A stretch of DNA of 11,536 nucleotides from a virus (Duplodnaviria > Heunggongvirae > Uroviricota > Caudoviricetes), in IMG/VR virus record IMGVR_UViG_2690316205_000005. One strand, given 5' to 3'. Positions 3,001 to 6,543 of this stretch are shown here, piece by piece. Every line of letters starts with the position of its first letter. Position 1 is the first letter of the stretch. Made by a program: the position numbers.

Positions 3001-6000
3001 CTTTTGGTGTTGCCGCCAGTGACTCGGAAGTGCTGTTAGTCGCACTACTGAGCTGTACTATCCCCTTTTTCGTCGTGCTCGCATCCTCAAGCGCCACGGC
3101 GGATGCAATATCCTCTGCCCGTTTTGCCGCTGTCTCAGCGCGCGTTGCTGCAGATTCCGCCGTACTTTTGCTCTGAGCTGCTGCCGTCGCACTACCAGCA
3201 GCCTCTGTCGCCTTCGTGGATGCCGTCGTGGCGCTGCCCTTCGCTGCTGACGCCTGTCTGGTCGCCTCATCTTTTGAAGCAGACGCCGATGATGCCGATG
3301 ACGCCGCCGAACTGGCGGACGATGCGGCAGCCGTTTTTGAGGATTCTGCACGGGTTTCCGACGCTTTCGCGTTCGTTTCGGATGTCTTCGCTGCGGAAGC
3401 TGACCTCGCTGCTGCCGTGGCCTGCTCAGTGGCTTCGCCAGCCTTCGTTGTGGCTGTTGAAGCGGATGATGCGGCGCTTTCTGCCGATTTTCCGGCGGCG
3501 GTGGCACTGGCTGAGGCCTGCCCGGCACTTGTTGACGCGGCGCTGGCAGACGACGCAGCCGCTGTTTTTGAGCCTGCCGCAGCTGAGGCACTCTGTCCCG
3601 CTGCCGTTTCAGAAGACCTGGCGTTCGTCTCGGACGTTTTGGCCGCCTTCGCAGAATTTGCAGCCGCCGTCGCCGAGGAAGCTGCGCTACTGGCGCTTGA
3701 TGATGCGTTCGTTTCTGATGATTTTGCCGCCTCTTTTGAAGCCGACGCATCCCGGGCTGAGGTGGCAGCTTCTGACGCTTTCGTGGTCGCGGTGGATGCA
3801 GAAGTGGCTGCTGATTGTTGTGACGCTGCCGCATTCGTTTCTAACGTTTTCGCCGCACCGGCACTGGTAGCCGCCGCGCTTTTTGAGGACTCTGCAGCGG
3901 CAGCACTTTTTGAGGCTTCAGTGGCCTTTGTTGATGCCGTTCCTGCGCTGGAAGACGCTGACTGAGCCGACGAAGCGGCCTGTCCGGCTGACGTGCTGGC
4001 TGCACGTGCTGAATCTGCAGCATCAGTCGCATGGGTTGCCGCCTCACGGGCTGATGTGCTGGCATCGCTGGCTGATTTCTTCGCGGCTGCCGTGTTCTGT
4101 GCCACCGCGGACGCGTTACGCGCCACCTCTTCCACCATCAGCTCAAAACGGCGCAGTGCCTCCGGACGGGCATCATCCTCCGTCATGGCACCGAGAAAAT
4201 CATTCAGCGTACCGGGTCGGGAATCTTCATACACGGTGATGGTCCCGGCATGTGACGGCGGGAATCCTTCCACCAACAGAATAACGCTGTACTGACCGTA
4301 CTCAACGTCCATGCTGTAACGCCCGGCTTCATCCGGATTTTCTGAGGCCAGCGTGTTCACCACCACCGTGGTGCTGTTACGTTTTGCTTTCAGCTGGATT
4401 GTGCAGTTCTGTACCGGTTTTCCTGTGCCGTCTTTCAGTACACCTGAAATCTTTACTGCCATATTCACCCCACAAAAAAGCCCGCCTGAACCGGCGGGCT
4501 GTCATAACACTGTGTTACCTGGCTAATCAGAATTTATAACCGACACCCACGATGAAACCGTCAGTGCGCCAGAGACGTGTTGCTGTGGCGACCGTCATCA
4601 CTTCCGGTCAGCACATCGTGCGTTTTCCCCTTATTGTCAGTTACGCGGATATAATCCCCGGAAAAAGTCGACACACGGCTGTAAGCCACACCCGCCATCG
4701 CATACGCGCTGAACCATTCATTCACGCGCACAGACGGCCCCGCCATCACGCTGAACCAGCGGTTACGCACGGAATCTTCATGCCAGCGGGTATCGCTGTA
4801 ACGGGTCAGCTGGCGATTCTTGTCTCCTGCATAGCTGAATGACGTCACCAGCCCCAGCGTATCCGTAAACTCATAACGGTATTTCACGTTAATCCCGTTC
4901 AGATCATCACTGCCGGGAACGTTGGTCCGGGCATGAAGATACCCCGCGCTCAGCGTGGACTGATGTTCAGACGCCCATGCAGGCGCACCGGATACGGCCA
5001 GGCAAATGGCTGCGGACAAAATGGCTGCACAAACTTTACGCATAATTACCTCTCGCTTTTCTGCAATAAAAAAGGCGTCATTCCTGACGCCATTTATTGG
5101 GGTTATAAATATTTCAACGAATACTGATGCCGGAAGCCGCTTTTTTGGTCACAATCACCGTACAGTCGGTGATATTGCCTGCCCCCTGATTGCCTTTCTG
5201 GAAAATCTTAAACTCCAGAGTGACGCTACCACCACCACTAGGCATATCAATAACTGCACTGTAACTACCGGGAATGGCACCTTTAGTTTCTCTGGATGCG
5301 ATTAATACGCCGTTTTTGCGAACTTCAAAACCATAACCCGTGTATCGCGTGCCTCCTGGGTTATTTCCGCTCCCCGGATCGTCATACGCTATACCGTTAA
5401 AAATAATGGGCGGAATAATAATCTGGCGGTCAAAGTTATGATCATCGCTTATGGTGACTGTAACCGTCCCGTTTGGTGTTTCCGTGTTACCCCACGTACC
5501 AGCCTGTTTCGGAAATGATTTGGATACAGCTTTAACGAAGTCACCTCTGACCTGAGTCGCCTCCAGCATGCCCTTAATCGTACAGTTTTCATTTACCGTG
5601 ACATTGTTGAGCGTCCCGGCGTTCGCATTCACACTGCCACTGATATCCGCATTTTTAGCGGTCAGCTTTCCGTCCGGAGTCAGGGAAAATGCCGATGGAT
5701 TTCCACCGCTGGTAATGGTGGGGGCCGTCAGGCGTTTCAGGAACACGTCGTTCATGAATATCTGATCGCCCTGACCAACAAACATCGGTTTTGTGTTGCC
5801 ATTCGCAGGATTAACCATCGCAATCCTGTCCGCCGCCAGCAGCACCTGACTCTGCATGCCGTCAGGGGTGTTCTCAATACCGGCACCAATACCCGCGATA
5901 TAAAGGCGTCCGTCCTGCATCTGCTGCAGCTTCACAGCCCACATGCTGTTCAGGTTATTATTTGTATCAACCTGAACCTTCTGTATCTGCTGAATTGCCG

Positions 6001-6543
6001 CACTCTGGTCTTCCAGTTTCTTATTGACGGTCTGCGTGATTTCATTGCTGACATCCGTAATGGACGTCCTGATTTCAGCCAGGTCAGGCGCAAGCTGACC
6101 GTTATCAATCTGCGTCCACAGCTCCTGAGCCAGATGGGTTTTCCCTATCTCGCCTTTGAAAAAATCCAGATAACCGGATGCATCATCACTCGGCTGACCA
6201 ACAGCCTCCACGAATGCCGATTTGCCAACGGTGTTCACACTGCGGATATAAAAGTAATAATCATGGCCCGGTTTGATATTGATACTGGCGGCTATCCAGT
6301 ACAGCGCCGTGCCAAGATAGCGTGCTGTGGTTTCAACCTGCCTGATATCCGCAATCCGCTTTTCCGAAAACCAGAACTCAAACTGCACCGTCGGGTCATA
6401 TACAGCCAGTTTCGGGACCGCCGTTATCTGAAAATACCCCGGTATCAGTTCAATAGTGACAGGCGCTGCCGGTGNNNNNNNNNNNNNNNNNNNNNNNNNN
6501 NNNNNNNNNNNNNNNNNNNNNNNNNNNNNNNNNNNNNNNNNAC

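Follow-up and report, generated by a model that had tools for sequence, protein, structure and literature searches.

A phage 434-type receptor-binding module in the central tail fibre protein J of a lambdoid prophage, with OmpC as its probable receptor

The best described relative of the gene considered here is the J gene of phage lambda, and the locus compared with it is the J gene in an 11,536-nucleotide (nt) stretch of a lambdoid prophage (Caudoviricetes; IMG/VR record IMGVR_UViG_2690316205_000005), which, taken at its full length, is called the window. Lambda J forms a trimer whose C-terminal Ig-like domain carries four bottom loops that enter the LamB trimer, and upon this binding the tip spreads, the beta-prism twists, the helical shaft flips and the tail opens (PMC11101478). 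When lambda J was swapped for the gene of phage 434, binding was redirected to OmpC, the receptor of 434 (PMC11101478, PMC3509688; also PMC12502783). Solved tip structures include those of lambda, closed (8xck) and on LamB (8xcj), and of A8, closed (9wca) and on OmpC (9wcb). Maddamsetti et al. designated residues 960-1132 of J the "specificity region", which recombines independently of the rest of the protein, and they described correlated indels at positions 1012, 1048/49, 1077/78 and 1107 of natural J genes, as well as a second indel-rich region upstream in which one indel is nested within another; their data set included Ayreon, cdtI and mEp460 (PMC6646904).

Set against these systems, the J of the window is best described as a mosaic of three parts, namely, a lambda-like hub with its FNIII domains, a shaft of the phi458/cdtI type that is 28 amino acids (aa) longer than that of lambda, and a tip of the 434 type, this last module probably joined after a conserved beta-prism block. 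Judging from the sequence relationship of its tip, OmpC, and not LamB, is most likely the receptor of the prophage J.

The tip module and its candidate receptor

An initial annotation of the window, made from the sequence alone, had stated that the first ~740 residues of J track lambda J closely while the C-terminal end diverges and predicts another receptor. Alignment with lambda J (NC_001416) bore out both statements on sequence. The 741 residues encoded by 8766..6544 (- strand) run without gaps along lambda J 1-741 at 96-97% identity, with 90-100% in each block of 40 residues, and the FNIII-2 domain that follows is 89% identical to lambda 714-808. Counting only Pfam hits above the curated cut-offs, the entire domain series was recovered (Phage-tail_3, FNIII-A_GpJ, Ig_J, Ig_J_second, Phage_Tail_Tip and Ig_GpJ_C), and sequence matches in the PDB comprise 8iyk, 8xcj and 9wca. 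The last 180 residues, in contrast, are only 42% identical to lambda, with 17 gap positions. Within this end, the equivalent of lambda 966-1000 retains 66% identity, and that of 1001-1132 only 34% (48/143), with insertions after 1011, 1043, 1078 and 1099 and a deletion of 1109-1114; neither its sequence nor its loop lengths around 1012, 1048, 1077 and 1107 are those of a LamB-type tip. Three of these indels (after 1011, after 1078 and at 1109-1114) lie at, or a few residues from, the published hot spots 1012, 1077/78 and 1107, and the six-residue insertion after 1043 falls 5 residues from the hot spot 1048/49, its placement in the alignment being ambiguous.

The key observation is the relationship of this same region to phage 434. 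The equivalent of the specificity region (lambda 960-1132) matches 434 at 168 of 178 positions (94%) without a single gap column, and the last 180 residues of J are identical to those of 434 and of lambda h434 imm21 (OL657226, OM418627) at 170 and 169 positions, respectively. At the DNA level, the stretch from J nt ~3000 to the stop codon is 88-99% identical to 434, versus 41-64% to lambda. Because the tip is near-identical to that of 434 and lambda h434, whose J confers OmpC use, OmpC is the most likely receptor, and the prediction of a receptor other than LamB gains support from the ungapped match.

The structure of the tip was predicted with AlphaFold2 (AF2). The resulting model, with a predicted local distance difference test score (pLDDT) of 80.7, matches the solved gpJ tips 8xck and 8xcj of lambda and 9wca and 9wcb of A8 (E ~1e-15, TMq 0.68-0.71). 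As the fold is kept and the loops differ, the mechanism is presumably kept too. By analogy with lambda, three C-terminal Ig-like domains would form the fibre tip, and their bottom loops would insert into a trimeric outer-membrane porin and thus trigger tail opening; with tip loops of the 434 type, this porin would most likely be OmpC.

The same tip is found widely. The C-terminal 424 aa are 95.8-98.3% identical to the J of 24 deposited phage records, among them phi458, cdtI, Ayreon, ev099, ev243, mEp332, PhiR34_1, phiSTEC1575-Stx2k, Stx2a_WGPS6 and other Stx2 phages. The 487-nt tip-coding DNA occurs in the gpJ gene of 2113 of 5426 complete E. coli genomes, and in the protein database many entries with 94-99% identity come from E. 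coli, E. albertii and Shigella, the majority being genes cut short by the end of a contig. The tip thus belongs to a common, well-populated and already described allele class of a well-understood protein. In agreement with the assignment to OmpC, these C-terminal 424 aa, at 96-98% identity, also occur in phages able to form plaques on K-12, phi458 on MC1061 being one example (PMC9701743).

The known relatives differ from the window in instructive ways. Phage 434 and lambda h434 share the specificity region and the gene order J-lom-stf-tfa, but 434 has the short shaft of lambda type, devoid of the 28-aa insertion, and lambda-type residues 862-925, and ten residues of the tip region, discussed below, are different. 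Phi458 has the same three-part mosaic, a J of 1165 aa and a shaft and prism 100% identical to those of the window; it and the other phages listed above depart from the window in a few tip substitutions (V/H/R at lambda ~1099-1104 versus I/Q/G) and at the start of FNIII-2 on the C side of the gap in J, where the window carries another allele. Lambda J itself (NP_040600; PDB 8IYK, 8XCK, 8XCJ) shares the domain order and the fold, with residues 1-833 at ~90-97% identity, and the modelled tip superposes on its receptor-binding domain; however, the window has a shaft longer by 28 aa, with 28% identity, and a divergent tip, and lambda binds LamB. Finally, A8 and 1A2 (PMC11338833; PDB 9WCA/9WCB) and phi330 (PMC12502783) share the Ig-like fold of the tip and use a trimeric porin as receptor, as would be expected for the window, but they belong to other sequence classes. 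The tip of the window is 47% identical to 9wca/9wcb by fold alignment, 45% to the 1A2-like tip of E. coli CFSAN029787 and 51% to the A8-like tip of P0050, so that the A8 and 1A2 types as a whole lie at 45-51%. The possibility that it is itself an A8 or a 1A2 tip was ruled out (gene ends and PDB A8 chain end: ...AGITIS / ...AGISI), and phi330, an OmpC phage related to WGPS6, was dropped as direct support, its tip being reported as only 35-40% identical to 434.

Several points weigh against the assignment to OmpC. Our search of the literature found no receptor experiments for a phage with the exact J mosaic of the window, phi458 and Ayreon included. Ten of the 180 tip residues differ from 434, several of them in or next to the hot-spot stretches at ~1012 and ~1107, and lambda itself can gain OmpF as an additional receptor through just a few changes there (PMC6646904). 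OmpC is bound by no fewer than three unrelated tip classes (434, A8/1A2 and phi330), so the mapping of class to receptor is not one-to-one, and a run of Ns at 6475-6541 may hide sequence. The literature likewise yielded no receptor data for mEp332 or the PhiR/ECOR phages, and this lambda-type tip is absent from the large receptor screen of 2026.

Two other receptor readings have to be set beside OmpC as used by 434. That the tip still binds LamB despite its divergence is hardly credible: distinct sequence classes can share a receptor, as the three tip classes that bind OmpC illustrate (PMC11338833, PMC12502783), but the near-identical tip of 434 and lambda h434 is the classical switch from LamB to OmpC (PMC11101478, PMC3509688), and the low identity over lambda 1001-1132 comes with five indels at loop hot spots. 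A 434-like tip of shifted specificity, limited to particular OmpC variants or directed at a different porin (OmpF, for instance), so that K-12 OmpC would be the wrong call, has more to recommend it, although we consider it unlikely. Six of the ten differences from 434 adjoin the equivalents of lambda 1012 and 1107 (Q1008, A1009, N1017, I and Q at ~1099, and G1104), clustering near 1008-1017 and 1099-1104, and three tips that are near-identical elsewhere differ at the 1104 equivalent (R, W or G). It is also established that OmpC-binding tips can tell OmpC variants apart, A8 and 1A2 differing in which of 23 variants they accept (PMC11338833). Nevertheless, phi458, which is 97% identical over the region, plaques on K-12 MC1061 (PMC9701743), and E. 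coli, E. albertii and S. sonnei commonly carry the very loop allele of the window, [11 protein letters not shown], a pattern that fits ordinary polymorphism rather than a receptor switch. A bolder proposal, in which the longer shaft and the substitutions near the hot spots together give a receptor range other than that of 434 and an altered trigger for tail opening, appears to us slightly more doubtful still. If it were true, restriction to certain OmpC variants or extension to another porin would represent natural fine-scale receptor tracking within one tip class.

OmpC as the receptor of a known, 434-type tip is a reasonable call for host-range prediction, with little value beyond annotation; the same assignment can guide the choice of gpJ parts in the engineering of lambda-derived particles. 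As a separate observation, the codons for [13 protein letters not shown] (window ~5180-5200) specify G at the equivalent of lambda ~1104, where 434 and phi458 have R and lambda h434 imm21 has W; this polymorphic position is a few residues away from 1107, a host-range hot spot of lambda.

The shaft, the conserved block and base composition

The helical shaft of lambda J was assigned to residues 809-840 and 841-861 (PMC11101478), and it belongs to one of the two modules in which the window differs from lambda. The equivalent of lambda 809-861 is identical to lambda at 23 of 81 positions and to phi458 at all 81, and it contains 21 additional residues after lambda 835 and 7 after 838 (28 aa in sum). 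The adjoining equivalent of lambda 862-925, in the beta-prism, shows 61% identity to lambda, and, taken together, the region corresponding to 809-925 is 100% identical to phi458 and 28-61% identical to lambda and 434, both of which have the short form. These differences agree with the earlier remark that the segment upstream of the conserved block also differs from lambda. The upstream indel-rich region described in natural J genes may correspond to this insertion of 21 and 7 residues. An AF2 model of the shaft segment, computed as a monomer from a single sequence, is helical, with pLDDT above 90 only over residues ~50-90; it extends the helix into a stretch that is beta-prism in lambda, so it deserves little weight and supports helicity only. 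The inserted residues might thus be helical and lengthen the shaft, a suggestion that we put forward weakly.

Between the shaft and the tip lies the block equivalent to lambda 926-965, which had been singled out as conserved and is indeed 97% identical to lambda (39 of 40 residues), with DNA identity rising back to 0.84-0.93. The DNA identity profile of J displays two separate breakpoints, and the block between the two modules is likely to be a recombination joint or crossover site. All four combinations of shaft and tip are represented: a short shaft with the lambda tip in lambda, a short shaft with the 434 tip in 434, a long shaft with the 434 tip in the window and phi458, and the same long shaft with a 1A2-like tip in CFSAN029787. 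These pairings indicate that shaft and tip modules assort independently among lambdoid prophages, and the J of the window illustrates the published picture of their independent shuffling. The proposal that the C-terminal region is a horizontally exchanged module thus stands, since its boundary is visible in the DNA and modular exchange of the region has been published (PMC6646904).

The base composition, which had been offered in favor of the same proposal, is a weaker argument. The last 400 nt of J are indeed AT-rich (GC content 0.477, versus 0.598 in the first 2200 nt and 0.557 in the last 400 nt of lambda J), and those of phage 434 J are as low (0.480). However, the 900 nt immediately upstream already have a GC content of 0.506, so that the drop begins ~1.3 kb before the stop codon, and by our own arithmetic the last 400 nt lie only ~1 binomial standard deviation under the adjoining stretch. 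The AT shift does exist but extends beyond the tip, and AT-richness alone argues weakly for horizontal exchange.

The run of Ns within J

The J gene is interrupted by a run of 67 Ns, and the open reading frame (ORF) at 5114..6388 does not begin at a gene start but represents the portion of J that follows this run; the frame of this portion is open upstream to 6472 and encodes 452 aa starting at lambda J residue 714. The two flanks of the run carry different alleles of one 88-nt segment of J (~75% identical by eye), which is present in a single copy in every intact J. When the Ns and one of the copies are removed, an open frame of 3498 nt results, the length of gpJ in phi458 and E. coli GPEC657. 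An in-frame insertion of 52 aa at this point was ruled out, given that the two sides are out of frame.

Relatives of the window were sought among IMG/VR loci, designated L0xx, of which 15 matched an exact 35-mer of the window; the same 35-mer had no match in species-representative genomes. One of them, L017, matches window 1-6474 at 99.68% identity, and its J continues unbroken across the position of the gap, where it has the N-side allele; L020 likewise has an intact J, of 1165 aa. As near-identical relatives carry an uninterrupted J, the split into two ORFs is best read as an assembly gap or scaffold join within a genome that harbors several lambdoid prophages, not as biology. The C-terminal module is contiguous with lom, stf and tfa, so that its identity is unaffected by the gap.

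A related question is whether the two sides of the gap, window 1-6474 and 6542-11536, come from two lambdoid prophages of one genome, in which case this J was never one gene. We regard this as a serious possibility, if somewhat short of probable. The identity of the relatives L012 and L017 drops from 99.6-99.7% over 1-6474 to 94.7% exactly at the gap; the N side of the window finds its best match (98.3%) on another L012 contig, in which the adjoining J C-part is only 90.7% identical to that of the window where the two align, and the matches listed include none of 400 nt or more between the tip region of that contig and the tip of the window. Moreover, the end of the C-side contig carries ~110 nt of a third allele. 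Against a chimeric scaffold, recombination is frequent among lambdoid J genes, which makes a genuine breakpoint in this vicinity conceivable, and intact genes of the same overall mosaic and length exist in phi458, GPEC657 and L020. Even if the scaffold were chimeric, the nature of the C-terminal module would not change. Rather improbable, in our judgment, is a true disruption, by which the Ns would hide real sequence and a true duplication of the 88-nt segment, with its frameshift, would have left a pseudogene in a decaying prophage that uses no receptor. The frames do differ across the Ns, the neighboring lom is a pseudogene with an 83-nt deletion, and the homologous region of the closest complete genome, located at the Qin/ydfJ site, has a truncated tape-measure gene, with IS66 alongside. 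Yet the 88-nt segment is present as two distinct alleles, either of which occurs singly in intact J genes elsewhere; deletion of the Ns and one copy restores an intact ORF of exactly 3498 nt; L017 reads straight through; and draft assemblies very commonly have contigs that end within a partial J.

A technical lesson follows from reading the split as an assembly gap: the J gene of polylysogenic E. coli breaks short-read assemblies, and a J that spans a run of Ns may be a chimera of two prophages. In the same vein, the IMG/VR loci L007, L012 and L013 consist of short pieces split by single Ns, with two or three J fragments each, so that J often breaks the assemblies of polylysogens.

Gene order and neighboring features

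ORF and Pfam scans showed that the long ORFs of the window all lie on the - strand and represent the distal end of a lambda-type tail operon (Table 1). The order M-L-K-I-J, followed by lom, stf and tfa, is the same in lambda, 434, phi458 and GPEC657. The last of these is the closest complete genome, with 95% identity over 96% of the window and the same gene order; there the region adjoins ydfJ, and gpJ measures 3498 nt. Tandem-repeat and Rfam scans of the window revealed nothing relevant to J.

Table 1. Coordinates of J, its parts and the neighboring features in the window
Feature	Position	Strand	Evidence or remark
End of tape-measure gene (H)	window right end, to 11536	-	ORFs
M	10822-11151	-	ORF
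L	10114-10812	-	ORF
K	between L and I	-	ORF
I	8827-9468	-	ORF
J, central tail fibre / tip attachment protein	8766 down to 5114	-	Lambda J alignment and Pfam
J N-terminal part, 741 codons: hub domains, FNIII-A, Ig_J (FNIII-1), start of FNIII-2; ends at the N run	6542..8766	-	Pfam Phage-tail_3, FNIII-A_GpJ, Ig_J
88-nt J segment, N-side copy (lambda aa ~713-742), lambda/phi458-type allele	6542..6629	-	Identical to L017, L020
Run of 67 N interrupting J	6475..6541	.	Frames on either side differ by 2 nt
88-nt J segment, C-side copy, other allele	6387..6474	-	99% to intact gpJ, e.g. E. coli CFSAN029787
FNIII-2, second Ig-like domain of J	6158..6466	-	Pfam Ig_J_second, E=1e-38
Alpha-helical shaft in variant form, corresponding to lambda 809-861; codons of the 21+7 additional residues lie within 6014-6106	5945..6187	-	Alignments
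Conserved beta-prism block [19 protein letters not shown]...SVNAN (FMNDVFLKR...SVNAN), lambda 926-965	5633..5752	-	39/40 identity to lambda
434-type specificity module, stop codon included	5114..5632	-	94% to 434 and lambda h434 (180 aa, ungapped)
Ig-like receptor-binding domain	5117-5527	-	Pfam Ig_GpJ_C, E=9e-26
Terminator-like hairpin and T run directly after J	5074..5091	-	Terminator annotated at the same position in the phage 434 record
lom, shortened by an 83-nt deletion; context gene outside J	4561..5043	-	Pfam and comparison with relatives
Side tail fibre gene, 1029 aa	1379..4468	-	Pfam phage_tail_N, Phage_fiber_2, Collar
Tail fibre assembly gene, 193 aa	798..1379	-	Pfam Caudo_TAP

The side fibres of Ur-lambda likewise bind OmpC, and, by analogy, the side tail fibre of the prophage, encoded in the same operon as J, may be a second adsorption determinant. 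Its gene has a middle part of ~350 aa that is rich in Ala, Ser and Thr and of low complexity, which gives rise to long spurious ORFs in other frames.

The hairpin that follows J differs from that of the relatives L004 and L005 in both arms of the stem (GGCGTCA...TGACGCC versus GGCACCA...TGGTGCC), with the pairing kept. The product of lom has 160 aa, versus 199 aa in relatives, and the responsible deletion ends at a repeated CTGGCG; the truncated ORF is also found in L017. Within the 3' half of the tail fibre assembly gene, at 838-1036 (-), there is a full-model match to Rfam IS009 (RF02111) with 218 bits. Beyond that gene, positions 1-797 are AT-rich (GC content 0.32), their longest ORF having at most 52 aa, and their counterpart in E. 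coli GPEC657 lies between tfaQ and a truncated ydfJ, at the Qin prophage site.

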